Shown piece after piece: positions 7,575-36,311 of a stretch of DNA of 55,764 nucleotides. The notes beneath the pieces were generated by a model. The model was not told the DNA's origin and did no database searches. It was given only the letters and a program-made list of their open reading frames with translations. The stretch's first letter is position 1, and each line of letters opens with the position of its first letter. The DNA lies in IMG/VR virus record IMGVR_UViG_3300033402_000018; one strand, 5' to 3'. The position numbers and the translations under genes were made by a program. Source of the DNA: a virus.

Positions 7575-7608
7575 AGGCTGGGGCAGATCATTTGGGGCGA
7601 TTCAAGCG

Positions 7609-10515: not shown

Positions 10516-10922
10516 GCACAGTAATTGAGCGCGGCTTCAGCGGCCCCGTTTGCGGAGAATGCGGGTCTGTCCTGCCAGTGGCGGGAGACTACAACCGTGT
10601 TTGTCTGAAGTGCAACCCTGAAAAAGAAATCTACTGGTTTGACGAGCGCGAACTGAGAGTGCTCCGCGAGATGATGGATGCGAAAGAGATGTCGGCGAAG
10701 GCTGTTGTCCGGCATATTTTCCGTCTCGGTCAGATGTGCGATCTATTCATCTCCCAAGGCTATAAGATCAGGTTTGAATCACCTGATGGCGGGGAGACAG
10801 TAGACCCGTTAGCTGGCCCGCCAAAGATGGCAGAGATGCCATACTGCGGCAATCCGCTGTGTCATCGCACGAGCGGCTTAACGATTCATAATCCTGATTG
10901 CCCGGAGTACGAATACAGATGA
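10512..10922 (+). CDS. hypothetical zinc-ribbon protein
   Basis: CGECGSVLP...CLKCNP and C-terminal CGNPLCH...NPDCPEY Cys clusters. Confidence 0.5.
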   Translation: MSTVIERGFSGPVCGECGSVLPVAGDYNRVCLKCNPEKEIYWFDERELRVLREMMDAKEMSAKAVVRHIFRLGQMCDLFISQGYKIRFESPDGGETVDPLAGPPKMAEMPYCGNPLCHRTSGLTIHNPDCPEYEYR

Positions 10923-11052
10923 GCTACAAAGACGACCAACTCGCGTTCAAAGTTATTCTAGGGGTCATCGTTACGATAATCGTTGGCACACTGGTGGTTT
11001 ATGCGACTGCTGGCGCTGTCATTATCCATTTCGTCAAGAAGTTCTGGTAACC

Positions 11053-11253
11053 ATGAAGATCAGGGTTAAAATCACACCCGCACGCTTGGAACGCCTGATG
11101 GCTGGCGAGCCGCTCAATTACGCCGTGGGCAACACGGAAATTGAGATCGTCATGGCAGATGACGTTTTTTCCAAGTTTGATGCGATTTTCGAGAAGATTT
11201 CCAAGATCGTCAACAAGACGGTGGAGAAGATTGAATCCGCAATCCTTAAGTAG
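11053..11253 (+). CDS. hypothetical protein
   Basis: 66 aa ORF. Confidence 0.4.
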   Translation: MKIRVKITPARLERLMAGEPLNYAVGNTEIEIVMADDVFSKFDAIFEKISKIVNKTVEKIESAILK

Positions 11254-11255
11254 GA

Positions 11256-11846
11256 TTGCCCATGCCTCGTTACATCGACATTGACCAAGAGCGTTTGTCC
11301 CACCTTCATGAGGGTTTAGAGCTTCTGGAGATGGTTGACCGTGAAGCAATCGCGGGACTGGACTTGTGCGTTTACGGGATCACCAACAACGCGTCCATTC
11401 TTGATTCCGCTAAAGAAGCCATCGCTGATTCTGAAGAAGTAGCGGAGCAGGACGTAGCCCTTACTGAGATTGCTGTAGCCATTCCGATCTCGTCTGACAC
11501 TATCTACGCGCTGAACGGTTCCGGCATTCGCCTCAGCCGCGAGGATTTTGCATACATGGGTTCCGGTGGTGAAGGTGTCCGCACCATGACTTTCGCTTTC
11601 GCTCACTTCAAATCGACAGTGACCCTGAATTCATTTTCCAAGCTCGCAATTGCTTCGTCTGATTCGTGGCTGGATGATTTCTTGCGTAAGGAAGGCTCCG
11701 GGCAGCAAGCGAAGGTCACTCCCGCTGTTCACCGCACCGAAGAAGCCACAGTTCCCGGCGCTCCCCCGGCACCAGAAATTCCGAAACGTACATCCGTTAT
11801 GGGTGGGCCCCGTCTGGCGTCCTTGATTGACGAATTTCTTGCATGA
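11256..11846 (+). CDS. hypothetical protein
   Basis: 196 aa acidic ORF. Confidence 0.5.
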   Translation: MPMPRYIDIDQERLSHLHEGLELLEMVDREAIAGLDLCVYGITNNASILDSAKEAIADSEEVAEQDVALTEIAVAIPISSDTIYALNGSGIRLSREDFAYMGSGGEGVRTMTFAFAHFKSTVTLNSFSKLAIASSDSWLDDFLRKEGSGQQAKVTPAVHRTEEATVPGAPPAPEIPKRTSVMGGPRLASLIDEFLA

Positions 11847-12351: not shown

Positions 12352-13185
12352 ATGGCGAACAAACCCAGAACCGACTCGCTGGGTGACAGAATGAAGCGCT
12401 ACGAAGCAACCACGCGCTTCCTGTTGCCGCGCCGCACTTACACAATTCTTCGCGTTGATGGTCGTGCGTTCCACACGTGGACTCGCGGGCTTGACCGTCC
12501 CTATGACCGCAACTTCATGGCGTGCATGAACGAAGCCGCGCTCGAACTTTGCCAGCAGATCGCGGGAGCGCAGTTCGCTTACGTGCAGTCCGACGAAATC
12601 AGCCTGTTGGCTGTGGACTTCCTTGACATCAAAACCGAGCCGTGGTTTGAAGGCGGCGTGCAGAAATGGGCCAGCGTCGGCGCATCCATCGCAACGATGG
12701 CGTTCAACAATTGCTTGCTTCGGCTGAAGGGGGCAAACCTCGACGAGTCTGAGCTTAAGATCACCAAGAAGCTCCCGAACGCCACGTTCGACGCCCGCGT
12801 GTTCACCATCCCAGACTTGGTGGAAGTGGAAAATTATTTCGTGTGGCGGCAGCAGGATGCGGAACGCAACTCCGTCACAATGCTGGCGCAGAGCTACGCT
12901 TCCCACAAGCAACTCATGGGGAAAAATCGCGCCGCGCAGCATGAGATCATCCACAAAGCCGGGGACAATTGGGCGAAGCATCCTGTGCGTTTCAAGCATG
13001 GCGCTGTGATCCGCCGTGCCGCTGAAAACGAAGTCTGGACGGAAGTCGGCACCCATCATTTCAACTGGGTTGTGGACGAAGACACCCCAGCCTTCACCAA
13101 AGACCGCGCTTACATCCGTGGTCTGGTTCCTGTTGTTTGGGACAACGACCTTCTGGTCAGAAAGGCGGCAGCGAATGGAGAATAG
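12352..13185 (+). CDS. tRNA(His) guanylyltransferase Thg1-like protein (TLP)
   Basis: DRMKRYE, TILRVDGRAFHTWTRGL, FAYVQSDEISLL match the conserved Thg1 N-terminal palm-domain motifs. Confidence 0.7.
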   Translation: MANKPRTDSLGDRMKRYEATTRFLLPRRTYTILRVDGRAFHTWTRGLDRPYDRNFMACMNEAALELCQQIAGAQFAYVQSDEISLLAVDFLDIKTEPWFEGGVQKWASVGASIATMAFNNCLLRLKGANLDESELKITKKLPNATFDARVFTIPDLVEVENYFVWRQQDAERNSVTMLAQSYASHKQLMGKNRAAQHEIIHKAGDNWAKHPVRFKHGAVIRRAAENEVWTEVGTHHFNWVVDEDTPAFTKDRAYIRGLVPVVWDNDLLVRKAAANGE

Positions 13186-22274: not shown

Positions 22275-24353
22275 ATGACTAACAAAGAACTGGTGCAGAT
22301 GTTCAACGCCGATCTGGAAGCAGCGCGGGACGCCTACTACAAGAAGGCGGAACCGATCATGACCGACGCGGAATATGACGCTATGGAAAAGAGTCTCCGC
22401 AATCTCATTACCGTGTTTCCGGGACTCGCCGAGTTCGCACCTGTCCTGAAGACGGTCGGCTCTGACCTTACGTCCAGTGGGCGCATCAAACACGCTGTCC
22501 CGATGCTCAGCATCGAAAACCAGTACACTGAAGAGGATTTCACTGGTCAGTATGACAAGTGGGGCGCGAACATGCCTGTTGTGCTGGAGCCGAAGTTTGA
22601 CGGCATCAGCGTCTCCATCCTGTATCTCAACGGCGTGCTTGAACGGGCGCTGACTCGCGGCGACGGCACGTCCGGCGAGAACATCACCGCAGCGGTTAAA
22701 GCGGTCAAATCCATCCCCCAGACTCTTCCGATAGATGTGTTCACCAGCCAATGCGAGATTCGCGGTGAGCTTGTGATGGCAAACGCCACACTCGAACGCA
22801 TCAACCGGGAAGCGGCGGCGATAGGCGGTAAGCAGTATTCCAGCACGCGCAACTTGACTGCCGGAACGATGAAGCAGCGTGACATGGACATCGTTGCCAG
22901 TCGAGACATTTTGCTCATGCCGTGGGATGTGCTTAGTGTCAGCGCTTGGAAAGATGGCAAGCAGTTATTGCCGGACAGCCGTTACGAGCGCTTGCTTCTA
23001 CTGAGCGAACACGGCTTTGAAGAGCCAAAGGGTATTCGTTGCTTCCTTCGGGATGCGATCATCCCGGCGCTTCACATTCTCCTGAAGCACAACAAAGAGC
23101 GTGCAGTTAATTGTGACGGCGTTGTCATGAAGGTAGATAGTGTGACCGCGTGCAAAGAGCTTGGCAACGGCTCCAAATACACGAACTGGCAGACCTGCTT
23201 CAAACCACAGTCTGCGTCCGGCACTACATACTTGCGTGAGATTCAATGGCAAGTGGGGCGCACGGGCGTCATCAGTCCGGTTGCGAAATGTGACGTGGTT
23301 GTCTTGGCTAGTGCTAACGTCACCAGTGCCAGCTTGAACAACATCACGTTCATCCGCAAGATGGGCCTGAAGCTGGGCGCGAAAGTTGAAATGCTGCGCT
23401 CCGGCGATGTCATCCCGCAGATCGTGCGCGTCATTGATGACGGTGACGAAGAGATCAACCCTCCAACTCACTGTCCTGAATGCAACAGTCTGACGGAGTT
23501 GCGGGACGAAGGCGGGCAAGGCATTATCCAGTGCTTCTGCACCAGCCCGTTCTGCCCCGCACAGATCATAGGCTACCTTTCGTTCGTCGGCAGTCGTGAC
23601 GTTCTGGAGATCGACGGTCTGGGGCCGGAAATGGCGCGTAAGCTGGTCGAAGGTGAGTTCACTCGCGATCTTGCTGAGCTTTATGAATTTCAGCAGGACA
23701 TGATGAACATCCTCACGAAATTTGACGAGGAAACACTGATTCGCGGCGGACGCAAAAAAGGCTTTGACGCCACTCTTCCGAAGATGGTTCGGTCATTGGA
23801 GAAGGCGAAAACCGCGCCGTGGGAACGCTGGATCAAAGCGCTTGGCATTCCGATGATTGGCGAGACGCTGGGCAAGGTGGTCGCGTCTACTCTCGATCTT
23901 CAGGAAAAGAGCATGGCTACGCTGGATGTTGACCTGATCCTTTTTGCCGGGAAAGAAGTAGACGGGTTCGGTGAAGCCAAGATGAGCGCGATCCGAAGCT
24001 GGGCGGAACGAAACGGTGAACTCTGCCGGAAGCTCTACGGACTTGGTATTCGTCCTACTCCGATGGAAAAGGTGGTGGTCGCCGAAGGCGCACCACTGAA
24101 AGGTGTCGTCTTCTGCATCACCGGGGAGTTCAGCGAAGACCGCGATGCCCTGACGAAGAAGCTGGTTGCGCTTGGCGCGGAAGCGAAGTCCGGTGTCACT
24201 AAGAAAATCAACCTCTTAATCGTCGGGGAGAGCGCCGGAAAAACAAAATTGACCAAAGCCAAGGAACTTGGCATCAAACAGGTAGGCAAAGAGTGGCTGG
24301 AACAGGCGCTTGGCGGACTTAAGCCTGATACCTTCGCCGCTGAGAGGGCGTAA
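22275..24353 (+). CDS. ligA: NAD+-dependent DNA ligase LigA
   Basis: N-terminal Ia-like domain (EAARDAYY...DAEYDAM), KxDG adenylation motif (LEPKFDGISV), OB and Zn-finger (CPECNS...C..C), HhH region, C-terminal BRCT (VFCITGEFS...LLIVGESAG). Confidence 0.9.
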   Translation: MTNKELVQMFNADLEAARDAYYKKAEPIMTDAEYDAMEKSLRNLITVFPGLAEFAPVLKTVGSDLTSSGRIKHAVPMLSIENQYTEEDFTGQYDKWGANMPVVLEPKFDGISVSILYLNGVLERALTRGDGTSGENITAAVKAVKSIPQTLPIDVFTSQCEIRGELVMANATLERINREAAAIGGKQYSSTRNLTAGTMKQRDMDIVASRDILLMPWDVLSVSAWKDGKQLLPDSRYERLLLLSEHGFEEPKGIRCFLRDAIIPALHILLKHNKERAVNCDGVVMKVDSVTACKELGNGSKYTNWQTCFKPQSASGTTYLREIQWQVGRTGVISPVAKCDVVVLASANVTSASLNNITFIRKMGLKLGAKVEMLRSGDVIPQIVRVIDDGDEEINPPTHCPECNSLTELRDEGGQGIIQCFCTSPFCPAQIIGYLSFVGSRDVLEIDGLGPEMARKLVEGEFTRDLAELYEFQQDMMNILTKFDEETLIRGGRKKGFDATLPKMVRSLEKAKTAPWERWIKALGIPMIGETLGKVVASTLDLQEKSMATLDVDLILFAGKEVDGFGEAKMSAIRSWAERNGELCRKLYGLGIRPTPMEKVVVAEGAPLKGVVFCITGEFSEDRDALTKKLVALGAEAKSGVTKKINLLIVGESAGKTKLTKAKELGIKQVGKEWLEQALGGLKPDTFAAERA

Positions 24354-24613
24354 TGCACGATCTGCATGTAGGGCACATTCTCTTCTACTTGGTCGCGTTT
24401 GAAATCGCGGCTTTCGTTCTGACTTCCGTCATCCTGCTCATTAAGTGGACGCGAGCAGGGCACCCATTTAGTTCCGCGTGGGGCATAGTTTTCGGCAGTG
24501 AAGTTCGTTTCTTCGAGTTCCTGCCGCTGTTCGTGACCATCAACGGGATTAGCTTTGTGATCTGGATTCTATGGCTCGTCGCGTCCCACTTCGGCATAAC
24601 GTTGTCTTGGTGA
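24353..24613 (+). CDS. small membrane protein
   Basis: TAATG overlap; three hydrophobic helices. Confidence 0.45.
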   Translation: MHDLHVGHILFYLVAFEIAAFVLTSVILLIKWTRAGHPFSSAWGIVFGSEVRFFEFLPLFVTINGISFVIWILWLVASHFGITLSW

Positions 24614-24616
24614 TCT

Positions 24617-25390
24617 ATGTTTTCTGAAGCGCTCAAAATCGAGATCAAAGCCTACGTTTGGAACGAAGGCGAGACGCCCATTGAGCTTGTGTGGGATGGG
24701 CCGGACAATTTCGACCACATCCAGCACCAGCTTCGTGACCATCTCAACGAGAAAGATTTCGGTAAGATCGTCGCCGTTCATGGCACCGGATTGGACGCCG
24801 ATCTGACGGAGCTTCACTATCGAGCTTTCACCGATCCGTTCCGTGGGCGCAAGATCGTTGCTGGCGTCACAGCGGAAGATTGCCAGAACCAGTATGAAGA
24901 AGTCATCACCAACTACCACCAAAAGGTGTTCAGCCCCCGCGACTTGTATCAGTTGAAGCCAGCGGACACAAGCTATTTCCTGTGGCATTTTGTGTCTGTT
25001 CACCTTCAGGAGGAACTTGGTATCTACGATCTGGATTTGGATTCTGCCGAAGAAGGCAAGCGGATCGAGATTCGCACCATCGCTGACATTTGCCATGACG
25101 GGCGGCGCACGTGGACGTTGCAGACAGTTTGGTTCGACGGCGTTCCGGTTATGGTGGTCAACAGCAGTGGGCGAGACGGCGACGAATATCACCAGCGCTG
25201 GATTACGAACCTGACGCAGTTCGGTGAACTGCTTAACTATTTGCGGAACTTCACCAAGAGACAGATTGAAGGTTTTGTGGCTGAAGACACGATCATCCCC
25301 AACATGACGGAGTTCTACGGCGGCACGATTCATGACTTTTACGATGTCGTTAGCCAGCGGCCGATTCCGGCGAAAGTCCGAATTGGGTAG
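24617..25390 (+). CDS. hypothetical protein
   Basis: 257 aa ORF. Confidence 0.5.
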   Translation: MFSEALKIEIKAYVWNEGETPIELVWDGPDNFDHIQHQLRDHLNEKDFGKIVAVHGTGLDADLTELHYRAFTDPFRGRKIVAGVTAEDCQNQYEEVITNYHQKVFSPRDLYQLKPADTSYFLWHFVSVHLQEELGIYDLDLDSAEEGKRIEIRTIADICHDGRRTWTLQTVWFDGVPVMVVNSSGRDGDEYHQRWITNLTQFGELLNYLRNFTKRQIEGFVAEDTIIPNMTEFYGGTIHDFYDVVSQRPIPAKVRIG

Positions 25391-25444
25391 ATTTTTTGAA
25401 TCGCTTTACGGTAAGATGGAATCTTAGAGCGTAGGAGCAATATT

Positions 25445-26113
25445 ATGTCCAAACTGAGCGATGCACTCAAACACATTCCCGGCGCAAGCGCCATTGTTGA
25501 TTTTGACGAAGATACGAAGCCAGCGCCAGTCCCAACCAAGCCCGTTTCAGAGCACCCGGCGTTCAACTTGACCCCCGGAGCTTTCAGCGCCGCACCAGCG
25601 GTCCCAGCATCCGGCTCGCCGTTCGCGGTTCCAAGCACCGTGGTGATTGACGAAGGCGTGTACCAGAGCATTCTGAAAAAGACCAACTTTGACGCGACGT
25701 CGGTCGGTCAGACGATCCACAAGTATTACGATGCCCTCGAAGGCACCGGGATGGACCCGAACGCACGGTTCAAAGCAGCATTGAAACAAGCCGCCGCGCT
25801 GGATCACATTGCACCTGACCAAGTTCTTGCGACATTCGATCAGTTGACCGCCGCGCTGGAGAAAGACGCGCAGGGATTCGCCGGAGTTGCTTCGAGCGTG
25901 GAAGCCAAGGAAATCACTGCACGCCAGCAGAAGTTGCAGGACATCGCACAGCAAATCGCGCAGCTTCAACAGCAACAGACACAGGTTCAGGGTGAGCTTG
26001 TTGACGCGCAGACCACGCACGCCAACGCGACCGCCCAATACAACATGGCAAAGCAGCGCCGGGAGCAGGAAATCACCGCTCAGAAGGCGCAGTTCGCGGC
26101 CCTGTTGAAATAA
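25445..26113 (+). CDS. hypothetical protein with Q-rich C-terminal coiled coil
   Basis: AGGAG-like RBS (gtaggagca) before the ATG; C-terminal QQKLQDIAQQIAQLQQQQTQVQ. Confidence 0.5.
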   Translation: MSKLSDALKHIPGASAIVDFDEDTKPAPVPTKPVSEHPAFNLTPGAFSAAPAVPASGSPFAVPSTVVIDEGVYQSILKKTNFDATSVGQTIHKYYDALEGTGMDPNARFKAALKQAAALDHIAPDQVLATFDQLTAALEKDAQGFAGVASSVEAKEITARQQKLQDIAQQIAQLQQQQTQVQGELVDAQTTHANATAQYNMAKQRREQEITAQKAQFAALLK

Positions 26114-26139
26114 CGAGCTTGCCGCTCGTAGCTTAATGC

Positions 26140-26167
26140 GTGGCAAACCGTGCGCACGGTTTGCCAC
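26140..26167. repeat. 28-bp perfect palindrome
   Basis: GTGGCAAACCGTGCGCACGGTTTGCCAC; not followed by a T-run. Confidence 0.7.
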
Positions 26168-26344
26168 ACGGAAAAGAGTCCCTCTTTAAGTGGGAAAGAT
26201 GTTCTCGGACTTCGCAAGGGGCACCGAGTATCCGGGCACGGATAGGTTCAAATCCAACCGGGCGGCATTGATTTCAGTAGTCAAGCAGGTAGGTTTCGCG
26301 GTATACTTTCGCGGTATACTCGCGAAGAAAAGGAAAACGACTCT

Positions 26345-27436
26345 ATGAGCACCACACCTTCACCACTCGCCAACTTCAATCCGAAGTCGTTCTGGAAAAA
26401 GCCGGAAGGCGTTCCCGGAATGATCCTGATGGGTCTGTTACTCGGACTAGGGGGCTGGGGACTGTACATCGCACTCCCCTTTATTATCACCCTGCTGACC
26501 AACGTCATCTACACCGCCGCGCTCGTCGGCGTCATCGCTGCTCTGGCGTACATCGTCATGAACGGGACCGTTCAAACGCTCGCCAAGAACATTTTCCAGT
26601 CCATCTGCCGGGGCATCGCCACTTGCTATACCACGATTGATCCCATCGGCATCCTGAAGAACCAGCTTGACGACATGAAGAAGGCAAAGCGTGAACTGGA
26701 TGACACCATTCAGCGTTTCGCTGGCTCTGACAACAGCCTTCGCACCAACATCGCCAAGAAGCAGCAGGAGATCGCGCAGTTGAAGGCGCAGTCACAGGCG
26801 GCTGACCGTATGTTGGCGAGCAAGTCCGATCCATTGGAGCGGGAACGCATCAAGCTGCAAGGCGAAACGTATCTGGAGAAAGCTGGATTGCTGATGCAAG
26901 CAGTTGCGCAGCTTCAGGCTCTTGAAGATCAGACCGCCGACATGCTTGGCAAGTTCCGTCACTGGAGTCAGGTATCCGACGCCAAGATTGACCGCACCGC
27001 GATGCGCGTTGAAATCTTCGCCGAACAGCGCAAGATGATTTTGGACGCCAAGAAGACGCTCAGCGTCGGCCTCCGCTTGCTCAAGGGCGATGACGAACAG
27101 TTGAAGCTGGTGGACGGCGCTATCGAATTCCTCACGGAAGACGCAGCCCGCACGCTTGGTGAAATCCAAGAGTTCAACCGCTTCTCTGACAAGATGTTGA
27201 CCGACATCGACATCAGCAACAGCGCCAACGCTGAAATGGCACGCGCCAAGTTCGCCGAAATGGGAACGAAGCTCGAAGCCAGCGCTAACCGTCCGTCCGC
27301 CGTAGATCAGTTGCAGGCGGCGATGAACGGCGCTGGGCCGATCAGCATCCCATCGTCTCCGGTTGTGGGACGCGGGACAGCGGCGAGCGGTGGTCAGTCA
27401 GACAACACGGACTACAGCAGCCTGTTCAACAAATAA
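26345..27436 (+). CDS. membrane protein with two N-terminal TM helices and extended coiled-coil domain
   Basis: 363 aa; hydrophobic segments MILMGLLLGLGGWGLYIALPFIITLL and AALVGVIAALAYIV followed by heptad-rich region. Confidence 0.5.
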   Translation: MSTTPSPLANFNPKSFWKKPEGVPGMILMGLLLGLGGWGLYIALPFIITLLTNVIYTAALVGVIAALAYIVMNGTVQTLAKNIFQSICRGIATCYTTIDPIGILKNQLDDMKKAKRELDDTIQRFAGSDNSLRTNIAKKQQEIAQLKAQSQAADRMLASKSDPLERERIKLQGETYLEKAGLLMQAVAQLQALEDQTADMLGKFRHWSQVSDAKIDRTAMRVEIFAEQRKMILDAKKTLSVGLRLLKGDDEQLKLVDGAIEFLTEDAARTLGEIQEFNRFSDKMLTDIDISNSANAEMARAKFAEMGTKLEASANRPSAVDQLQAAMNGAGPISIPSSPVVGRGTAASGGQSDNTDYSSLFNK

Positions 27437-27506
27437 GTTTGCCGGGGCTGAAAAGATTTGAAGCTTTTCGGCCCCGCTTGACATCGAAGAAACGAGGAGA
27501 TTCACA

Positions 27507-29327
27507 ATGCACATCAAACCGCAAGCAAAGATCGCTCTGGTAGTTGTTCTGGTTCTGGGCGTAGTCTTCGGACTCCGCACCGCCGCAGAGCATGGATTGA
27601 TCCCAACCCCCGGCATCATGAAGGCGTTGGTGCCTCAGAAGGCTGTCCTGCCTGATGTAAAGGATGCTCAAGTTCAGAACGTCGCCCCTGTAGCCCTCCC
27701 GCAAGACTCCCCGGCTAACGTTCAAGCCACGCCGATTCGTGGCGCGATCTGGGAATGGAACGCTCAGATGGGCATGATCTTCGCCAACGGCGGCGCAACC
27801 ACGACCGCTGGTTCGTTGATGGCGAAGCGCAACGTCAACCTGATTCTGTATCGTCAGGACGACACCAGCAAGATGCAAGAAGACCTGATCGCTTGCGCCA
27901 AGGAACTGCATGACGGCAATCCGTCTTGCTCGAACGGTGCAAACTTCGTGGTCATCATGGGAGACGGCGCTGGTCAGTTTGCCGCCGCAGTCAACCCGCA
28001 GCTTGCTAAGCTGGGCCCGCAATATCTCGTGAAGGTCATCGCCGCCACTGGTTACAGCCGTGGTGAAGATGCTTTCATGGCTCCCCCGGACGTGAAGAAG
28101 AGTCCCGCCGCTGCGAAGGGACTTCTGGTTGAAGGCGTGCTCCGCGATGGCGACTGGAATATTGCCATGAAGTGGGCTGCTGACAACAACATCCCCAACA
28201 ACCCGGACGAGAAGACCTACGACGCCAACGCTCTCAACTGGATTAACGCGCCGGACTACAATACCGCCGCGTCTGATTACGTTGCTGGCAAGTGCGAAGA
28301 CCGCAAGGTCGTAAAAGACGGTCACCCGACTGGCGAAACGAAGCACGTCTGCGTCAATGCGGTCGTGACTTGGACTCCCGGCGACGTGACGGCTGCTACT
28401 CAAAAGGGCGGCTTGGTCAAGGTGGTTTCGTCCAAGCAGTACCGTTCGCAGATGCCCGCTGTGGTCCTTGGCCCCGGCAAGTTCTTCGCCGACAATCGTG
28501 ACGAAGTAACCAACATGATCGCTGCCATCTTTGAAGGTGGAGATCAGGTTAAGGCGTTTGACACGTCTCTGCGCAAGGCTGCGGTCATTTCGACCAAGGT
28601 CTACAATGACGAAGGCGATCAGACTTCGCACAACGGCGATTTCTGGTATCGCTACTTCAAGGGCGTCCCGTACAAGGATCAGACCACGGGCGCGACTGTT
28701 GAGCTTGGCGGCTCCGCAGTGAACAACCTTGATGACAACCTCATCCTGTTCGGCTTGAAGCCCGGAACCAACGACAACTTCCGCAGCACCTACACGGTGT
28801 TTGCCAACATCGACGTTCAACAGTATCCGCAGTTGTTCAAAGAGACGCCGATTCCAGACGTGAAGTTGGTCGAAGACAAGTCTTACATCACCGGAGCACA
28901 GGCTGTTCTGTCCGGCGAAGGTGACACTGGTTCTGAAGCCAGCGCTCCGGCTTACGAGCAGGAAGCCAGCGGCGAGACCGTTTCCAGCCGCTCGTACAAC
29001 ATCAACTTCCAAACGGGAAGTGGGCAGCTTACGCCGCAAGGCGAACAGCAGCTTCGCGATCTGAAAGATGGTCTGGCAATCACCGGACTGTTCATTCAGG
29101 TGGACGGATACACCGACAACACTGGCTCTGATAGCGTTAACATCCCGCTGTCTCAGGCTCGTGCGGAGTCCGTGCGCAACTTCCTGCAACGCAACTATCC
29201 CGGCAACTTCCCGAACAAACGGTTCGCGGTCGCCGGACATGGTTCGCAGAACCCAATCGCGTCGAACGCCACGGCGGACGGTAAAGCTCAGAACCGCCGC
29301 GTGACGATCACGTTGAAAGGCAACTAA
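27507..29327 (+). CDS. large exported/membrane-anchored protein with C-terminal OmpA-like peptidoglycan-binding domain; N-terminal portion possibly a solute-binding domain
   Basis: N-terminal signal anchor; C-terminus VDGYTDNTGSDSVNIPLSQARAESVRNFL...AVAGHGSQNPIASN...NRRVTITLK matches the OmpA/MotB C-domain consensus; followed by intrinsic terminator. Confidence 0.65.
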   Translation: MHIKPQAKIALVVVLVLGVVFGLRTAAEHGLIPTPGIMKALVPQKAVLPDVKDAQVQNVAPVALPQDSPANVQATPIRGAIWEWNAQMGMIFANGGATTTAGSLMAKRNVNLILYRQDDTSKMQEDLIACAKELHDGNPSCSNGANFVVIMGDGAGQFAAAVNPQLAKLGPQYLVKVIAATGYSRGEDAFMAPPDVKKSPAAAKGLLVEGVLRDGDWNIAMKWAADNNIPNNPDEKTYDANALNWINAPDYNTAASDYVAGKCEDRKVVKDGHPTGETKHVCVNAVVTWTPGDVTAATQKGGLVKVVSSKQYRSQMPAVVLGPGKFFADNRDEVTNMIAAIFEGGDQVKAFDTSLRKAAVISTKVYNDEGDQTSHNGDFWYRYFKGVPYKDQTTGATVELGGSAVNNLDDNLILFGLKPGTNDNFRSTYTVFANIDVQQYPQLFKETPIPDVKLVEDKSYITGAQAVLSGEGDTGSEASAPAYEQEASGETVSSRSYNINFQTGSGQLTPQGEQQLRDLKDGLAITGLFIQVDGYTDNTGSDSVNIPLSQARAESVRNFLQRNYPGNFPNKRFAVAGHGSQNPIASNATADGKAQNRRVTITLKGN

Positions 29328-29351
29328 GAGTCGTACCCCGTTCATTCGGCT

Positions 29352-29390
29352 GGGCAGGGATGAAATATTCCCTGCCCTTTTTTATTTTTT
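29352..29390 (+). terminator. intrinsic terminator after OmpA-domain gene
   Basis: GGCAGGGA-TGAAATAT-TCCCTGCC hairpin followed by CTTTTTTATTTTTTC. Confidence 0.7.
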
Positions 29391-29405
29391 CTGCATCTAA
29401 GAGAC

Positions 29406-29621
29406 ATGAGACCGAAACCAGCAGACGTTGAATTGAAGATCGCTGAGAGTGTCGGCTGGTACATTGACGTAACTAACGAAGAGAAGTGGCTGGTGCGTGA
29501 CGGCGGCGTGAATCAATGGGTCGGCCCCGGCGCAGCTACGGACGCGGAACTGAAATTGTGGGTTCTGCTGCTGACCAAGATTGTGACGAAAGAAGCCAAG
29601 GAATTTTTGGAGAGCCTGTAA
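29406..29621 (+). CDS. hypothetical protein
   Basis: 71 aa ORF after terminator. Confidence 0.35.
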   Translation: MRPKPADVELKIAESVGWYIDVTNEEKWLVRDGGVNQWVGPGAATDAELKLWVLLLTKIVTKEAKEFLESL

Positions 29622-30406
29622 TGAGTGAGTTCATTTCCGCTTACACACCGAACAAACCCACCAAGGTATCCACGGTCAAGATGCTGATCGCTAGCTATGC
29701 CGCGTTCTTCTTCGTGTTCTGGTTCTTCTCGCCGTTCCCGTTCCTGCCTTCAATCGGTGAAACATGGGCAGCGTGGGTTGAGCAGTGGGGGCAAGGCTTA
29801 GGCGGGGAACTCATTACTAGCTTCGAAGCCAACTTGCAAGCTATCGCTCTTTCTTCTCTCATCTCGCTGGGACTTGCCTATTTGACAGTGCTCGCCGGAT
29901 TCCGTCCAATCGTCACGTTCCTGTCCAAGCTACGCTTCCTTTCAATGGTCGGCTTGAGCTTTTTCTTCACGGTTGCCACGAAGACACAGCACCAACTCAA
30001 GATCAGCTTGTTGGTGTTCAGCATCAGTGTGTTCTTCGTGACCGGGATGGCTGACGTGATCGAGTCAATTCCGAAAGAACAGTATGATCTTGCACGCACG
30101 CTGCGCATGGGGCCGTGGCGCACCGTCTGGGAAGTAGTAGTGCTGGGTCAAATTGACAAGGCGTTTGATGTGCTGCGCCAGAACGCCGCCATCGGATGGA
30201 TGATGCTTACGATGATTGAAAGCATGGTTCGTTCCGAAGGCGGCATTGGCGCTATGCTCACCACCGCGAACAAACACTTTTACCTTAACGCAGTCTTTGC
30301 CATCCAGATCACCATTCTGTTGATGGGGTTGGGGCAGGACTACTTGATCGGCGCATCGAAGAAGCTCTTCTGTCCGTATGCCGCGCTGGGATCGGAGCGC
30401 AAGTGA
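29621..30406 (+). CDS. ABC transporter permease (NitT/TauT-type binding-protein-dependent inner-membrane component)
   Basis: Six hydrophobic segments; EAA-like loop KEQYDLARTLRMGPWRTVWEVVVLG; TAATG overlap start. Confidence 0.75.
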   Translation: MSEFISAYTPNKPTKVSTVKMLIASYAAFFFVFWFFSPFPFLPSIGETWAAWVEQWGQGLGGELITSFEANLQAIALSSLISLGLAYLTVLAGFRPIVTFLSKLRFLSMVGLSFFFTVATKTQHQLKISLLVFSISVFFVTGMADVIESIPKEQYDLARTLRMGPWRTVWEVVVLGQIDKAFDVLRQNAAIGWMMLTMIESMVRSEGGIGAMLTTANKHFYLNAVFAIQITILLMGLGQDYLIGASKKLFCPYAALGSERK

Positions 30407-30798
30407 AGAACCTTGAAGGATACGCGCTGATAGCGCTCGTGCTGTTCACATTGTTCACATTGTTCACCATTGGCTGCGGAAGCACGCCTCCTGTATGGAC
30501 AGCCTATACTGCGGAAGCTGTGTACCTGAACGAACCCGGCTCCGTGTCAATTCTGATGCGTAACGAAGATAACAGTCTTTCGGTGAAAAAGTTTTATGTC
30601 AGTACCGATGCACTGATTATCAAAGACGACATCGTTGATTCCCGCGCACATCCATGGGTGAGTGTTGAGCAAGAGAGTGAGATGGGCGACTTGGTGACTA
30701 CCAAAATCACAGTCCACGTTCACAGCATCAAAGAAATCCAGCCCGGACACTGGAACCACGGAAAGTTCGGACAGGGACAAGATCAGCAGATAGAATAG
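30403..30798 (+). CDS. lipoprotein
   Basis: Signal peptide with lipobox TIGCGS. Confidence 0.5.
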   Translation: MKNLEGYALIALVLFTLFTLFTIGCGSTPPVWTAYTAEAVYLNEPGSVSILMRNEDNSLSVKKFYVSTDALIIKDDIVDSRAHPWVSVEQESEMGDLVTTKITVHVHSIKEIQPGHWNHGKFGQGQDQQIE

Positions 30799-30807
30799 GG
30801 GAAGACA

Positions 30808-31263
30808 ATGGGCTTCATATTTGGGATAGTGGTTGGGATTTGCCTTGCGGCGCTTATAGGGCATTGCTGGCAGGAAGACGGCTGTGACCACACATGGAAA
30901 GTCACCGCTGCGCATCAGATGATGCTCGTACACACCATCCACGGCGTTACCATTGGGGAGCCGGATGATGGGCAACCAGTCACCGAAGTGCTTTCTCGCT
31001 GCACCGTCTGCGGGGAAACGGTCACCGAAGAACTCTCAGGTCACTGGACTTACGAGCAGCTATCCGGTGAGCCGGATGCGTCCGGGGAAAACACAACTTT
31101 TTGGCGAACGGCGAAAAAGCCGGAGCCGGAGCAAACCGATATTTTTTGGCGAACGGCGAAAAAGCCGGAGCCGGAGCAAACCGATGATCGAAGTGGGACA
31201 GGAAGTGACGCGCTGGCTGGCGGGGACAATCCCGATGCAGCTAAAAGTGACAGCGGTAACTGA
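30808..31263 (+). CDS. hypothetical membrane-anchored protein containing a 15-aa tandem repeat
   Basis: N-terminal TM helix; FWRTAKKPEPEQTDI / FWRTAKKPEPEQTDD from a perfect 45-bp tandem duplication; 3-prime end uncertain. Confidence 0.4.
   Translation: MGFIFGIVVGICLAALIGHCWQEDGCDHTWKVTAAHQMMLVHTIHGVTIGEPDDGQPVTEVLSRCTVCGETVTEELSGHWTYEQLSGEPDASGENTTFWRTAKKPEPEQTDIFWRTAKKPEPEQTDDRSGTGSDALAGGDNPDAAKSDSGN
31101..31190 (+). repeat. perfect 45-bp tandem duplication (2 copies)
   Basis: TTGGCGAACGGCGAAAAAGCCGGAGCCGGAGCAAACCGAT repeated with period 45. Confidence 0.8.
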
Positions 31264-31447
31264 AGACCGAATCATCTGCGGCGACTACGAGTTCGACAAA
31301 CGGACTGGCGCTGAGATTGATGACTTCATGGGATTCGGGCCGGACTTCACAGGCAGCTACATCAAGGTTCCCGGCGTGAACTATGTTCAGGCTTCTGATG
31401 AAGAAGCACTGGCACGTCTCGAACAAATCGGCAAGAAAGGCGAATGA
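31184..31447 (+). CDS. hypothetical protein
   Basis: MIEVGQEVTRW... in alternative frame beginning inside the duplicated segment; overlaps the previous call. Confidence 0.35.
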   Translation: MIEVGQEVTRWLAGTIPMQLKVTAVTEDRIICGDYEFDKRTGAEIDDFMGFGPDFTGSYIKVPGVNYVQASDEEALARLEQIGKKGE

Positions 31448-31597
31448 TATGAATGCCGCGATCAAAGAAGTTATCGAGAAGCACGTCTGGGCGTATGGGC
31501 CTAACCGCAAAGGCTGCGTTATGTTCATGACGGATGGCGTCAGGGAAGTAGCCAACGAACTTGAAATCAGCTATCGGGCGGCGGAAGAGCTTGTCCG

Positions 31598-32497
31598 ATG
31601 CTGGATTGGGGAGACATTCTAATGGCGGCACTTTATCCATACACCTACGGGCCTACGCTTCTTAAAATCGACAACGTTTGCCTATCGGCGTCGTCTGACG
31701 GTCTGCGGTTGCTCGAACACGAAGAACCGGGGAGCCGCCCCATTCTGAAGAACGTGAGCGCCGAAATCAAGAAGATCGACCGTGTTGGATACGTTAACGG
31801 TCAGATCGTAGGATTCATCGGCCCGTCTGGTATCGGCAAAACACAGCTTTTCCGCATCATTGCCGGACTCAACAAGCCAACATCAGGTTCCGTCACGATC
31901 AATGGCGGCAAAGTGGTGCAGGCAGGTGAAGTAGGCGTCGTGGCGCAGAATTACCCGCTCTTTGCGCATCGCACGGTCATGAGTAACCTCATGCTCGCCG
32001 CCAAACAGAAAGAGAAAGACCCCAAAGTAGCGCATGACAAAATCATGACGTTCTTGAACGAATTCAAGCTGGCGGACAAGGCCCCATTGTATCCGGCGCA
32101 GTTATCAGGTGGGCAGAAGCAGCGCATCGCCATCATTCAGCAAATCCTGTGCTCAGAGCATTTCCTGCTCATGGATGAGCCTTTCTCCGGCTTGGACATC
32201 ATCGTAGAAGGCAAATGCACTGAGTTGATCTTGAAGGTTGCCAACATGGACGGCTTGAACACCGTGATCGTAGTCACGCATGACATTTCAGCCGCCGCAG
32301 CCATCGCCGATCACATCTGGGCATTGGGGCGTGAGCATGATGCTGAAGGCAACCCGCTCCCCGGCGCGAGTATTGTGAAGACCTACGACCTGATAAACGA
32401 AGGTCTGTGCTGGACACAGTTGGGTGAACACGCGATGGTTCAACCAAACATGGTTGAGTTCATCCGCCAAGTCAAGGAAGATTTCTACAAGTTCTAA
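31598..32497 (+). CDS. ABC transporter ATP-binding protein
   Basis: Walker A GPSGIGKT, signature LSGGQKQRIAI, Walker B LLMDEPFSGLD, H-loop VTHD. Confidence 0.8.
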   Translation: MLDWGDILMAALYPYTYGPTLLKIDNVCLSASSDGLRLLEHEEPGSRPILKNVSAEIKKIDRVGYVNGQIVGFIGPSGIGKTQLFRIIAGLNKPTSGSVTINGGKVVQAGEVGVVAQNYPLFAHRTVMSNLMLAAKQKEKDPKVAHDKIMTFLNEFKLADKAPLYPAQLSGGQKQRIAIIQQILCSEHFLLMDEPFSGLDIIVEGKCTELILKVANMDGLNTVIVVTHDISAAAAIADHIWALGREHDAEGNPLPGASIVKTYDLINEGLCWTQLGEHAMVQPNMVEFIRQVKEDFYKF

Positions 32498-32528
32498 CAT
32501 TTGTGGTAAAATCCAGAGAGGAGTTTTT

Positions 32529-32741
32529 ATGGCGAAGAAAGAAGCGAAAGTTTTGAAGCTGGTCTGCAAGTGCGGCGAATGCACCCATTGGGAAATTCTG
32601 CTGACTCGTAGCAGCGCGGGCAACTACACGGAGAACGAGCACATCAAGTGCATGACCTGCGGCACCTTGATTGAAGTGAGTTTCAGCGTCGGGCCTCACG
32701 AAGGTCTGCACTTCGAGAGACAGGGCAAGAACGAGAAGTAA
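32529..32741 (+). CDS. hypothetical zinc-ribbon protein
   Basis: CKCGEC...CMTCG; possible extended -10 (TGGTAAAAT) upstream. Confidence 0.4.
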   Translation: MAKKEAKVLKLVCKCGECTHWEILLTRSSAGNYTENEHIKCMTCGTLIEVSFSVGPHEGLHFERQGKNEK

Positions 32742-32891
32742 ACCATGCTGGATCGCGCCTTAGACTGGACGGGGGATCACCCGGTGATAACCGTGGTGAT
32801 CTGCCTTCTCCTGTTGACAGGCGGGTGCGGTATTAGCATTCATGTCGGCATCCTTTCGTCTCAGACGAAGTTGATGCCCTATTGAGGAACT

Positions 32892-33152
32892 ATGGCATAC
32901 GTCATTGCAGAGCCGTGTATCGGCGTCAAAGACACAGCATGTGTCGATGCGTGTCCAGTGGATTGCATTCACCCCAAAAAAGGCACACCTGAGTTCGAGA
33001 AAGAGCCGCAGCTTTACATTGATCCCGTAGAGTGCATCGACTGCGGCGCTTGCGTCCCGGTTTGCCCAACGGCCGCAATTTTCCCGGTGGACGATTTGCC
33101 CGAACAGTGGAAGAAATTCACCGAGATCAACGCCAAGTATTTTGGAAGGTAA
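32892..33152 (+). CDS. 2x[4Fe-4S] ferredoxin
   Basis: CIGVKDTACVDACP and CIDCGACVPVCP cluster motifs; 86 aa. Confidence 0.8.
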   Translation: MAYVIAEPCIGVKDTACVDACPVDCIHPKKGTPEFEKEPQLYIDPVECIDCGACVPVCPTAAIFPVDDLPEQWKKFTEINAKYFGR

Positions 33153-33459
33153 CGTGGCTGAAGCAACGTGCTGGCTATGCGAACACGGCAATAAACGGTT
33201 CCTTGATGGCGGGGTGTACTGGCATTCACACAAGGAAAGCAACGGCTACGATTACGATAATTATACGTCGCCGTGCGGCGACCAGACGGCGAAGACCTTG
33301 GAAGCGTATCGCAAGCGGGAGCTTGAAATCCTTCAGGCGAACATTGACCGAGCGCAGGAGAAGCTGGACGCTTTGAAGTCAACCCGTGACGGCATTAAGA
33401 AAGCGAAGACCGCCAGTTCGATCTTGCGCCACATGAATCTTGCGGGGTTGAATGGCTGA
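33142..33459 (+). CDS. hypothetical protein
   Basis: 105 aa; alternative GTG start 33154. Confidence 0.4.
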   Translation: MEGNVAEATCWLCEHGNKRFLDGGVYWHSHKESNGYDYDNYTSPCGDQTAKTLEAYRKRELEILQANIDRAQEKLDALKSTRDGIKKAKTASSILRHMNLAGLNG

Positions 33460-33637
33460 CACGATTGTCGGTTTTGTGGATGGACTCTATAAAGCCACAT
33501 GCGCTGACTGTGGTGAAAAGCTGTATTGGGAAGCGGACTTCGACGCGGACGGCACTAACTACCACGCTACCTGTTGCGATCATCGCTACACGATGTATCC
33601 GCATACCGTGCGCATCCACCGCGAGGAAGACGAATGA
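33452..33637 (+). CDS. hypothetical Cys-containing protein
   Basis: 61 aa, CADCG...CC. Confidence 0.35.
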   Translation: MADTIVGFVDGLYKATCADCGEKLYWEADFDADGTNYHATCCDHRYTMYPHTVRIHREEDE

Positions 33638-35638: not shown

Positions 35639-35728
35639 GGTGAGTTGGGAGAGTGGTTGATTCCGCTGGTTTGCTAAACCAGAGCACCCGAAAGGGTGCC
35701 ACAGGTTCGAATCCTGTACTCACCGCCA
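35639..35728 (+). tRNA. tRNA-Ser (anticodon GCU)
   Basis: Manual fold: acceptor GGTGAGT/ACTCACC, 3-bp D stem, anticodon stem CTGGT/ACCAG with loop TTGCTAA, long variable hairpin, T arm ACAGG-TTCGAAT-CCTGT, discriminator G, encoded CCA. Confidence 0.75.
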
Positions 35729-35729
35729 T

Positions 35730-35815
35730 GGTAGGTTTGGGCATTGGAAGGCCCACCTGTCTCGAAAACAGGCGACCGAAAGGTCGTAGGAGTTCGACTC
35801 TCCTACCTACCGCCA
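35730..35815 (+). tRNA. tRNA-Ser (anticodon CGA)
   Basis: Acceptor GGTAGGT/ACCTACC, anticodon stem CCTGT/ACAGG with loop CTCGAAA, long variable arm, T arm GGAGTTCGACTCTCC, G discriminator, CCA. Confidence 0.7.
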
Positions 35816-36032
35816 AATTTTAAGCTGGGCGGTGTATGGCACGGATACTTCTCGAAAAAGTAAAAACCCGTGACCGCGATGTTCCCCGGCAAAGTGTAAG
35901 TTCGCAGCGGTGTTGGATACAGTTACTTCGGTTGACTCTCTCAGGGAAACCTGAATGAGGAATAGACTTGGTTCGATCCCAAGCGACCAGCCGTAAGGCT
36001 GGTGTCAACTGTACCGTTTGTTCCCTGCGATT

Positions 36033-36122
36033 GGTGAGTTGGGGGAGTGGTTTAACCCACTTCGTTGGAAGCGAAGCGCACCCGAAAGGGTGCCGTGAGT
36101 TCGAATCTCACACTCACCGCCA
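36033..36122 (+). tRNA. tRNA-Ser (anticodon GGA)
   Basis: Acceptor GGTGAGT/ACTCACC, anticodon stem CTTCG/CGAAG with loop TTGGAAG, long variable hairpin CGCACCCGAAAGGGTGC, T arm GTGAG-TTCGAAT-CTCAC, G discriminator, CCA. Confidence 0.75.
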
Positions 36123-36127
36123 AGTTT

Positions 36128-36213
36128 GGAGAGGTCGGCATTGGCACGCCAAGCGGTCTTGAAAACCGTGATACCGCAAGGTATTGGGAGTTCGATTCTC
36201 CCCTTCTCCGCCA
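36128..36213 (+). tRNA. tRNA-Ser (anticodon UGA)
   Basis: Acceptor GGAGAGG/CTTCTCC (one G-U), anticodon stem GCGGT/ACCGT with loop CTTGAAA, long variable hairpin GATACCGCAAGGTAT, T arm GGGAG-TTCGATT-CTCCC, G discriminator, CCA. Confidence 0.7.
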
Positions 36214-36233
36214 AATTTGCGGCTGTTAAATTT

Positions 36234-36311
36234 GCGGTTGTGGCGAAATAGGCAGAGCGGGGGCCTTAAAAGCCCTGTCATTTGCGGGTTCGAGTCCCGC
36301 CAACCGCACCA
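36234..36311 (+). tRNA. tRNA, anticodon UAA (Leu-type anticodon) with atypical short variable region
   Basis: Acceptor GCGGTTG/CAACCGC, anticodon stem GGGGC/GCCCT with loop CTTAAAA, T arm GCGGG-TTCGAGT-CCCGC, A discriminator, CCA; D stem weak and variable region 7 nt, not type II. Confidence 0.45.

Follow-up and report, generated by a model that had tools for sequence, protein, structure and literature searches.

We found that positions 25445 to 32497 of the window (i.e., the whole 55.8-kb stretch of viral DNA analyzed here), perhaps extended to position 32741, probably constitute a single conserved cassette for a type I ABC importer of the NitT/TauT kind. The cassette comprises five genes, possibly six, of which the first two (25445 to 27436), both encoding coiled-coil proteins, lie upstream of the gene for a 606-amino-acid (aa) OmpA-domain protein. 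A sequence-only reading had confined the module to positions 27507 to 32497; the elements that it listed were all recovered in place or nearly so, but the conserved unit begins two genes earlier, at 25445 rather than 27507, with its 3' limit at 32497 or possibly 32741. In the neighborhood comparison, the five gene clusters co-occurred in 78 to 110 examined loci, and no further gene, metabolic enzymes included, was a conserved neighbor. Besides, no signaling output domain (kinase, cyclase, or DNA binding) was present in the conserved cassette. Full-text literature searches turned up no account of this cassette.

Chromosomes of Acidobacteriota, including soil Acidobacteria, and of some Armatimonadota carry the five-gene cassette. 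Bacterial operons, located in chromosomes of 1.3 to 5.3 Mb, encode proteins in the order 226-353-597-261-273 aa and lie next to housekeeping genes, among them cysS and two-component genes. A relative is encoded by 365 species genomes, and the OmpA fusion is chromosomal in hundreds of Acidobacteriota genomes. Complete transporters had been called unusual on phage-like elements, which is correct in general but not for this cassette: it recurs on 44 IMG/VR contigs and, with the same five genes, in the GenBank huge phage LR756500.1 (462 kb), and its copies on huge-phage contigs are widespread and diverse. Since the nearest chromosomal copies are only 52 to 70% identical and mosaic, the copy in the window is not a recent capture.

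The 606-aa binding protein (27507 to 29327, plus strand) was divided into three parts by using Pfam, hydropathy, and a predicted structure. One N-terminal hydrophobic helix (residues 9 to 27; positions 27531 to 27587) forms a transmembrane (TM) anchor, a middle domain of about 410 aa (approximately 27702 to 28940) is a predicted solute-binding domain, and the C terminus (29007 to 29297) is an OmpA-like peptidoglycan-binding domain, which matched Pfam OmpA (PF00691) above the curated cut-off with an E value of 1.1e-18 at residues 501 to 597. This agrees with the exported protein with an OmpA C terminus described in the sequence-only reading. The AF2 model (pLDDT, 93.6) predicts a TauA/NrtA fold, and lack of a solute-binding fold, named earlier as an outcome against an importer, was thus not encountered. 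No sequence relation of this domain to any characterized binding protein was detectable, even in a profile search; therefore, the fold assignment rests on the predicted structure.

Nineteen binding-domain residues never vary in a comparison covering 39 viral and 59 bacterial sequences, in which overall identity falls as low as 33%. As expected for ligand binding, these include polar and aromatic residues, which would fit such a role. Many of them are Trp, Asp, Glu, or Asn, which weakly favors a solute that is cationic or polyhydroxylated over nitrate or a sulfonate as the putative substrate. In the OmpA domain, all 98 sequences share Asp537 (in TDNTG), Arg552 (in SQARA), and Asn596-Arg597-Arg598. 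A conserved Asp and a conserved Arg of OmpA-like domains contact peptidoglycan diaminopimelate, as seen in structures of Acinetobacter baumannii OmpA with peptides, and Asp537 and Arg552, matched by motif position and not by superposition, are the candidate counterparts. Fusions of approximately 600 aa are the usual form across 481 clusters (50% identity), and the OmpA fusion is, as judged by this comparison, native to the protein family rather than a phage invention. BFVD contained no structure equivalent to the 606-aa protein over its full length.

A 261-aa NitT/TauT-type permease (29621 to 30406, plus strand) was identified from BPD_transp_1, a family profile, and hydropathy. Its start is the ATG at 29621, not the listed 29516, in agreement with all homologues and with a TAATG overlap with the stop codon of a preceding 71-aa open reading frame (ORF). 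Hydropathy indicated about six TM segments, and the protein contains an EAA-like loop, ARTLRMGPWRTVWEVVVLG. The BPD_transp_1 score of the window permease (25.7 bits) was just below the cut-off of 26.4, whereas the homologue in LR756500.1 scored 27.8 bits. In the PDB, the permease family profile matched only CmpB (E value, 5.9e-11) and NrtB (E value, 1.6e-9), nearly over the full length, and NCBIfam gave weak matches to ntrB and TauC. On these sequence grounds, the permease qualifies as a type I importer transmembrane domain of the NitT/TauT type, with the BPD_transp_1 fold and an EAA loop. An ABC exporter permease (ABC-2 or type IV to VII) was considered and rejected: no exporter family was matched, and the matches were to importer transmembrane domains only. 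Thus, the permease with an EAA loop noticed in the sequence-only reading holds up, and the exporter match that it had named as counterevidence did not appear.

The 291-aa ABC ATPase (31622 to 32497, plus strand) starts at a further TAATG overlap and matched ABC_tran with an E value of 8e-26. As had been noticed before, it carries the full motif set, intact in translation: Walker A (GPSGIGKT), the Q-loop, LSGGQKQR, Walker B and the D-loop (LLMDEPFSGLD), and the H-loop (VTHD). The top NCBIfam models were importer ATPases, including PhnT2, CysA, and NtrCD, and the PDB matches included CmpC/D and NrtC/D. Identity to the cassette homologues was 60 to 80%, and among PHROGs the ATPase matched phrog_293 and phrog_2392, which are labelled "ABC transporter, moron/AMG." A 70-aa zinc-ribbon-like ORF (32529 to 32741, plus strand) is perhaps the sixth member of the cassette; it is 30% identical (E value, 3e-8) to a 55-aa gene directly 3' of the ATPase gene on a Terracidiphilus chromosome, and ORFs resembling it occur near the ATPase gene in some viral loci.

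The first cassette gene (25445 to 26113, plus strand) encodes a 222-aa accessory protein without a TM segment, with a disordered N terminus and a coiled coil at the C terminus. It matched no Pfam family; its identity is 37 to 41% to the 226/228-aa gene in the same position of bacterial operons and 58% to its counterpart in a related phage (L005). Its cluster was found in 78 loci (44 bacterial and 34 viral), and the family HMM detected a 253-aa gene in LR756500.1. The second gene (26345 to 27436, plus strand), delineated by alignment, hydropathy, and bacterial homologues, encodes a 363-aa membrane protein, in which an N-terminal KSFWKKPEG is followed by a two-helix TM hairpin (residues 26 to 44 and 54 to 72), IDPIGILK, a long coiled coil, and a C-terminal DYSSLFNK. 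The gene shares 27 to 49% identity with its positional equivalents in bacteria, and its cluster was found in 81 loci. PF04012 (PspA_IM30) had no match in the 363-aa protein of the window, and its relatives scored 18 to 19 bits (E values, 7e-5 to 2e-3) against a Pfam cut-off of 33.9; several family members aligned in one register, with residues ca. 103 to 238 facing profile positions 23 to 145. Single-sequence hhalign of the 363-aa protein against E. coli PspA gave a probability of 0.8%, and deeper local hhalign paired IDPIGIL with the PspA motif EDPxKL (probability, 22%; E value, 1e-3). HMMER scores were no higher than those of shuffled sequences. Membership of the 363-aa protein in the PspA/IM30 (ESCRT-III-like) family was rejected on account of the sub-cut-off Pfam scores and the lack of a confident profile-profile match, and we treat the likeness as a lead only.

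The phage copy is broken up by small phage-specific ORFs; its conserved residues are nonetheless retained. Directly 3' of the binding-protein gene lies an intrinsic terminator-like hairpin with a T-run (29352 to 29387, plus strand), consisting of a 9-bp stem with seven G-C pairs (29352 to 29377) and then TTTTTTATTT. This was the best such site within positions 24000 to 33500 and corresponds to the strong terminator that had been proposed after the 606-aa gene. The 71-aa ORF (29406 to 29621, plus strand) between the binding-protein and permease genes was also predicted by an independent gene caller on an identical contig. The ORFs at its position in other phage copies differ (68 and 103 aa in L005 and L007 and 91 aa in LR756500.1), and bacterial operons have no ORF between these two genes.

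A 131-aa ORF (30403 to 30798, plus strand) is a phage-specific insertion whose product looks like a lipoprotein, with an N-terminal hydrophobic signal-like segment followed by TIGC, in accordance with the earlier suggestion; it had no homologue in 134 related loci and no family match. The next insertion, a 151-aa ORF (30808 to 31263, plus strand) with an N-terminal TM segment and Cys-rich motifs, had no homologue in the related loci compared. The 45-bp tandem duplication mentioned in the sequence-only reading (31098 to 31185, plus strand) is perfect (TRF: 2.0 copies, 100% match, score of 176) and was confirmed by direct reading. It sits in the 3' part of the 151-aa ORF and stops at the ATG of the small gene that follows, whose GGAG-containing upstream region it repeats. 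That gene, an 87-aa ORF (31184 to 31447, plus strand), is common to related phages. The 87-aa ORF is 66% identical to a 118-aa ORF between the permease and ATPase genes in related phages L005 to L007 and 65% identical to its counterpart in L089. A 57-aa ORF (31449 to 31622, plus strand; its stop codon forms the TAATG overlap with the ATPase gene) is 78% identical to its counterpart in L089. The split by a strong terminator and approximately 1.2 kb of foreign small ORFs could impair balanced expression. Every ORF of the phage cassette is intact, with the conserved motifs present.

Taken together, we consider it fairly probable that the cassette encodes a working wall-tethered importer of a small solute, carried as a host-like accessory module. 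The binding protein would be anchored in the inner membrane and pinned to the wall via the OmpA domain, where it would catch a small periplasmic solute and hand it to a permease homodimer, with two ATPase subunits powering import. In many ABC operons, binding protein is made in excess over permease, and the terminator-like hairpin, perhaps a partial one, may have this effect here. Both coiled-coil proteins, one with the TM hairpin and one soluble, may face the cytoplasm and regulate or stabilize the complex or the surrounding membrane; ordinary NitT/TauT importers have no counterpart to these two proteins, and that they are never missing here may point to a role that goes further than uptake. 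The small ORFs between the cassette genes would be phage additions that are translationally coupled, and the phage cassette might sustain or raise solute uptake during a long infection.

The two coiled-coil proteins accompany the transporter genes in bacteria and phages alike, which would also suit an envelope-maintenance or mechanical device. In such a device, the ABC engine would work together with the wall-pinned binding-protein-like subunit and both coiled-coil proteins (one of them perhaps PspA/ESCRT-III-like) so that ATP hydrolysis stabilizes or remodels the inner membrane and wall; its benefit to huge phages would be a host envelope kept intact during a long infection. The invariant wall anchor residues, the spread and diversity of the cassette among huge-phage contigs, the lack of a metabolic enzyme as a conserved neighbor, the common register of the PspA_IM30 matches, and the local hhalign pairing are in line with this idea. 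However, the PspA similarity is below the cut-off and not significant against shuffled controls or in single-sequence hhalign, the permease has the ordinary type I importer transmembrane domain, related to CmpB/NrtB, and is not an FtsX/MacB-type mechanotransmitter, and the binding domain retains the polar and aromatic set suited for a ligand. We therefore regard the device as unlikely.

It is quite improbable that the binding-protein-like domain serves mainly as a periplasmic sensor, comparable to the NrtA-like regulatory domain of NrtC/CmpC, in a complex that signals or regulates without bulk transport. A dedicated permease and ATPase, their catalytic and coupling motifs intact, are encoded alongside it in every case, and the cassette has no output domain. 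Moreover, functional importers commonly use tethered binding proteins, such as the lipid-anchored NrtA and CmpA.

Very improbable, too, is that the stretch is not phage borne (i.e., bacterial, plasmid derived, or misassembled) or that the cassette was captured recently and is now decaying. In favor of this, the window lacks genes for capsid, portal, terminase, or tail proteins, the GC content of the module (0.55 to 0.57) is slightly higher than that of its flanks, and a search of IMG/VR with an exact 39-mer did not recover the sequence of the window itself. Given the lack of a structural gene, the case for a phage is based on gene content and on relatives among IMG/VR and GenBank contigs. All genes of the window point in one direction with little space between them, and many of its ORFs are orphans. 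It encodes five tRNAs along with an NAD-dependent ligase, ThyX, a dCMP deaminase, NUDIX, and Thg1, and matches to PHROG families were obtained for several ORFs. Furthermore, the flanking genes (ligase, AAA, a 902-aa protein, and ferredoxin) are shared with 463-kb and 102-kb IMG/VR contigs. Intact ORFs argue against decay, and the divergence from chromosomal copies argues against recent capture. The cassette has chromosomal homologues on the one hand and phage-type replication and nucleotide genes as neighbors on the other; the phage copy would be a host-like accessory (auxiliary metabolic) module in a large phage-like genome, the host of which probably belongs to the Terriglobales (Acidobacteriota).

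The role in superinfection exclusion suggested in the sequence-only reading, or one in anti-phage defense, in which the wall-tethered protein would block the entry of competing phages, is extremely doubtful: the known exclusion factors include envelope proteins encoded by phages, some with OmpA domains, and PHROGs OmpA-domain families of unknown function match the C terminus of the 606-aa protein, but the fusion and the cassette are chromosomal and syntenic in many Acidobacteriota without a phage context, exclusion requires neither a permease and an ATPase nor invariant ligand-type residues, and PADLOC gave no system-specific match, only generic ones (the OmpA domain to the ZorB peptidoglycan-binding region and the ABC fold to mad3 and AriA), with none for the remaining eight proteins.

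Compared with known systems, the wall-tethered importer proposed here resembles the cyanobacterial nitrate and bicarbonate importers NrtABCD and CmpABCD (NitT/TauT; TC 3.A.1.16) in its permease (CmpB/NrtB), in its ATPase (CmpC/D and NrtC/D), and in having a tethered rather than free binding protein. It differs from them in that the binding domains share no detectable sequence similarity, a TM helix together with an OmpA wall anchor replaces the lipid as the tether, the single short ATPase lacks the fused regulatory domain of NrtC, and two additional coiled-coil proteins are present; the acidic and aromatic invariant residues also appear not to be suited for an anion. From the E. coli sulfonate importers TauABC and SsuABC (TC 3.A.1.17), the cassette is separated by approximately 10% sequence identity in a structural alignment and a binding domain that is about 110 residues larger, whereas TauA and SsuA are free in the periplasm without a wall anchor, and these systems have no accessory coiled-coil genes. 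In OmpA-like-anchored envelope proteins, such as MotB/PomB, TssL/TagL, Pal, YiaD, and YfiB, the region between the helix and the anchor is a linker or a plug, whereas here it is a complete predicted solute-binding domain; the partner of the anchored protein is an ABC importer and not a stator or a secretion system. Finally, like cyanophage pstS and the PHROG "ABC transporter" families, the cassette places transporter components on a phage as host-like accessory genes, but in contrast to pstS-type genes, it brings together a whole transporter and two accessory genes.

The 606-aa protein (27507-29327, + strand) has one hydrophobic helix near its N terminus (residues 9 to 27) and carries an OmpA domain at its C-terminal end (residues 501 to 597; Pfam, E 1.1e-18). 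Residues 1 to 480 gave no sequence match in Pfam, NCBIfam, or PDB, either as a single sequence or with two family profiles, and PDB sequence searches with the binding domain itself in these three forms returned nothing. A first AlphaFold model, based on 42 close homologues, reached a pLDDT of only 77 and yielded weak NMT1-type Foldseek matches, and a second model, based on a 113-sequence alignment with identity down to 30%, reached a pLDDT of 93.6 and a pTM of 0.90. The comparison table for the second model, in which the figures are unlabelled, lists TauA (27.4), NrtA (25.1), the binding-protein-like domain of CmpBCD (25.1), SsuA (22.9), ThiY (20.8), and the OmpA domain of TagL (17.9). From these entries, the middle region is predicted to be a solute-binding domain of class II, resembling TauA, NrtA, and SsuA. 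No full-length structural equivalent of the protein was present among the BFVD viral structures.

Across 39 viral and 59 bacterial sequences, with identity as low as 33%, 19 residues of the binding domain were invariant (W84, N85, S103, M151, D153, S184, E187, D188, D214, D216, W217, N232, N244, W289, T290, D293, M316, W380, and Y429), as were D537, R552, and N596-R598 of the OmpA domain. The N-terminal segment terminates in FGLR(T/K)AAE, and we infer that its helix is an uncleaved anchor, because the Lys found at position -3 in relatives makes a poor signal-peptidase site. Exactly opposite the gene runs a 639-aa antisense ORF (27426-29345, - strand), whose status as a gene is without support; as the coding region is GC rich, this is its shadow ORF.

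The permease (261 aa; true start, 29621) scored 25.7 bits against BPD_transp_1, slightly below the cutoff of 26.4 bits, which a homologue cleared with 27.8 bits. When a family profile built from 20 permease sequences was compared with the whole PDB, only CmpB (E 5.9e-11) and NrtB (E 1.6e-9), components of cyanobacterial importers, were matched, nearly over the full length. For the ATPase (291 aa; true start, 31622), importer ATPases were the best models; every ABC motif is intact in the phage copy, as is the coupling loop of the permease. From these permease and ATPase matches, an exporter-type transporter was therefore rejected. The sequence-only reading had proposed an ABC importer-like module, with an ATPase bearing all motifs and a 606-aa protein ending in an OmpA domain, and had tied this to a solute-binding fold in the middle region of that protein. 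All of this is upheld, the fold being that of the predicted structure.

The same reading had confined the module to 27507-32497. The genes that it listed stand, but the unit is larger, since two upstream genes, encoding 222 aa (25445-26113) and 363 aa (26345-27436), belong to it. They are homologues of the first two genes of a chromosomal operon with a fixed order (about 226 aa, about 353 aa, an OmpA fusion of about 597 aa, a 261-aa permease, and an ATPase of about 273 aa), found on contigs of 1.3 to 5.3 Mb and flanked by cysS, amidase, two-component, and ECF-sigma genes. When the ORFs of the window and of the related loci were clustered, these five families were found together in 78 to 110 bacterial and viral loci, and beyond them no neighbor, metabolic genes included, was conserved in the clustered loci. 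In Thermoanaerobaculia the order is permease, ATPase, a 344-aa protein with a transmembrane segment plus coiled coil, and then the fusion. A 70-aa zinc-ribbon ORF lies 3' of the ATPase gene (32529-32741); a Terracidiphilus chromosome has a similar gene there, and the ORF may be the sixth of the unit. The gene immediately preceding the cassette encodes a 257-aa protein (24617-25390, + strand; phrog_8664, E 1e-17). Related phage loci have it at this position too (identity, 50% in L005 to L007 and 46% in L089), but it is missing from the bacterial operons.

A terminator-like hairpin with a T-run follows the 606-aa gene (29352-29387; a 9-bp stem with 7 G-C pairs), and a perfect 45-bp tandem repeat lies at 31098-31185; both had been noted from the sequence alone, and all further elements of that list are likewise present. 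Small phage-specific ORFs are inserted between the binding-protein and permease genes (71 aa, 29406-29621) and between the permease and ATPase genes (131 aa, 30403-30798; 151 aa, 30808-31263; 87 aa, 31184-31447; and 57 aa, 31449-31622). TAATG or ATGA overlaps couple them to neighboring genes. Such ORFs vary among phage lineages, and none occurs in the bacterial operons. Within a signal-like segment of the 131-aa ORF, 3.2 copies of the 9-bp repeat TGTTCACAT (30443-30472, + strand) encode LFTLFTLFT.

The fusion family comprises 481 clusters at 50% identity, nearly all members being about 600 aa, and is encoded in 365 species genomes (scanned with alignment A1, the deep alignment A2 being too divergent for this). 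Identity to the window protein was 67 to 70% in Terriglobales, "Ca. Sulfotelmatobacter," and Acidobacteriaceae, 57 to 61% in other Acidobacteriota, and 45 to 48% in Thermoanaerobaculia, Holophagales, Vicinamibacteria, and Armatimonadota. The few high-identity metagenome-assembled genomes labeled as other phyla are probably binning errors.

Among viral records, the fusion was found on 44 IMG/VR contigs (33 to 73% identity; many of 100 to 530 kb). The permease and ATPase genes adjoin it in 41 of them, and the upstream coiled-coil gene does so in most. Inspection of these contigs gave a mixed picture, with portal-like, ligase, and clamp-loader matches but also ArgRS and MnmA, and the viral status is not certain for all 44. 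Contigs of 463 and 102 kb share the ligase, the 902-aa protein, and the ferredoxin of the window, and the 102-kb contig also has its AAA protein. The closest relatives of the window are contigs of about 440 to 460 kb, plus one of 894 kb. The AT-rich GenBank huge phage LR756500.1 (462 kb) carries the same five genes and a small inserted ORF; no GenBank phage matched positions 27000 to 33000 at the nucleotide level. The binding protein is 68 to 70% identical to the Sulfotelmatobacter type and 52% to the Terracidiphilus type, whereas the 363-aa protein is 27% and 49% identical, respectively. Because similarity to the host versions is thus mosaic, the phage cassette is, judged from these identities, an old, diverged phage lineage and no recent capture. 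The direction of phage-host transfer was not readable from a neighbor-joining tree in which the bacterial sequences were the best 80 of the 365 matches. The GC content is 0.55 to 0.57 over the upstream half of the cassette (25001-29000) versus about 0.53 to 0.54 in the flanks; this fits a higher-GC host origin, although the difference is small.

Other genes of the window deserve mention. A ferredoxin-like protein of 86 aa (32892-33152, + strand), which contains two Cys clusters, is 91% identical in two related huge-phage contigs (L089 and L090) and far more conserved than its neighbors. Five clustered tRNA genes (35639-36311, + strand) comprise four tRNA-Ser (GCT, CGA, GGA, and TGA) and tRNA-Leu(TAA). 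Genes of RNA and nucleotide metabolism (828-1457, 5525-8094, 12352-13185, 22275-24353, and 52726-53562) encode a phrog_4806 match labeled "histidyl tRNA synthetase," a dCMP deaminase, a NUDIX protein, a ThyX-like protein, a Thg1-like tRNA-His guanylyltransferase, an NAD-dependent DNA ligase with BRCT, and an RlaP RNA-repair nucleotidyltransferase. An 815-aa protein (50013-52460, + strand) matches the shoulder domain of the major vault protein (E 3.3e-26) as well as a vault repeat (E 5.5e-11) but no PHROG family; a vault-type protein is unusual on a phage-like contig.

A working NitT/TauT-type importer is the reading best supported by the sequence and structure predictions. The receptor would be anchored in the membrane, fastened to peptidoglycan as well, and would feed a permease homodimer energized by two ATPase subunits, with the terminator 3' of its gene allowing receptor to be made in excess. 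One coiled-coil protein lacks a signal sequence and the other has a transmembrane hairpin with a positively charged N terminus; both are predicted to face the cytoplasm, and the pair probably regulates or stabilizes the complex. The invariant residues, rich in acids and Trp, weakly favor a ligand that is cationic or polyhydroxylated over nitrate or a sulfonate. Rfam revealed tRNAs alone, and no riboswitch or cis-regulatory RNA, in nine related loci and the window. In LR756500.1 (L134), and at this one locus only, a GNAT acetyltransferase gene (10921-11304; E 1.2e-8) follows the cassette ATPase, which could hint at an amine substrate.

We also considered an envelope-maintenance machine and a sensor. 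In its most far-reaching form, such a reading would make the cassette an unrecognized envelope machine, in which an importer-type ABC engine, clamped to the wall via its binding-protein subunit, is coupled on its cytoplasmic side to a PspA/ESCRT-III-like protein anchored in the membrane, together with a coiled-coil partner, long kept by huge phages of several bacterial phyla to preserve or remodel the host envelope or sense wall-derived solutes during infection rather than for simple feeding; we hold this to be improbable. Homology of the 363-aa protein to PspA/IM30 was not established by Pfam, hhalign run two ways, or HMMER against shuffled sequences, and its PspA/IM30-like nature is only a lead. 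Structural genes were not found in the window, as would suit a non-phage stretch or a decaying passenger, but its phage identity is indicated because of gene content (five tRNAs, NAD-dependent ligase, ThyX, dCMP deaminase, NUDIX, Thg1, and several PHROG-matching ORFs), co-directional gene packing, and flanks common to IMG/VR contigs. As for a role in exclusion or defense, PADLOC defense models matched generic domains only.

If the importer reading is true, the fusion family of 481 clusters, which at present has no more specific label than "OmpA family protein" or "OmpA-OmpF porin," would supply the receptor for a wall-tethered ABC importer that is common among Acidobacteriota of soil and peat, a group of which the physiology is little understood. 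The cassette would also offer a tangible starting point for studying what phages of this sort draw from the environment during infection. It recurs in huge phages, one of them in GenBank, and may therefore be among the few cases in which a phage has all of a transporter and not just one component. Every single part is of a known kind. In the literature searched, neither an importer with a binding-protein-OmpA fusion nor such a phage cassette was described, and a receptor family recognizable, from its model, only by structure, the proposed double tether of the receptor, and the obligatory coiled-coil pair, along with the fact that huge phages carry the cassette as a whole, all appear to be undescribed in the literature searched and absent from BFVD. 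To our knowledge, textbook importers have no counterparts of the two coiled-coil partners, and an ABC importer whose binding protein is secured to the membrane as well as to the wall would be of a little-explored form.
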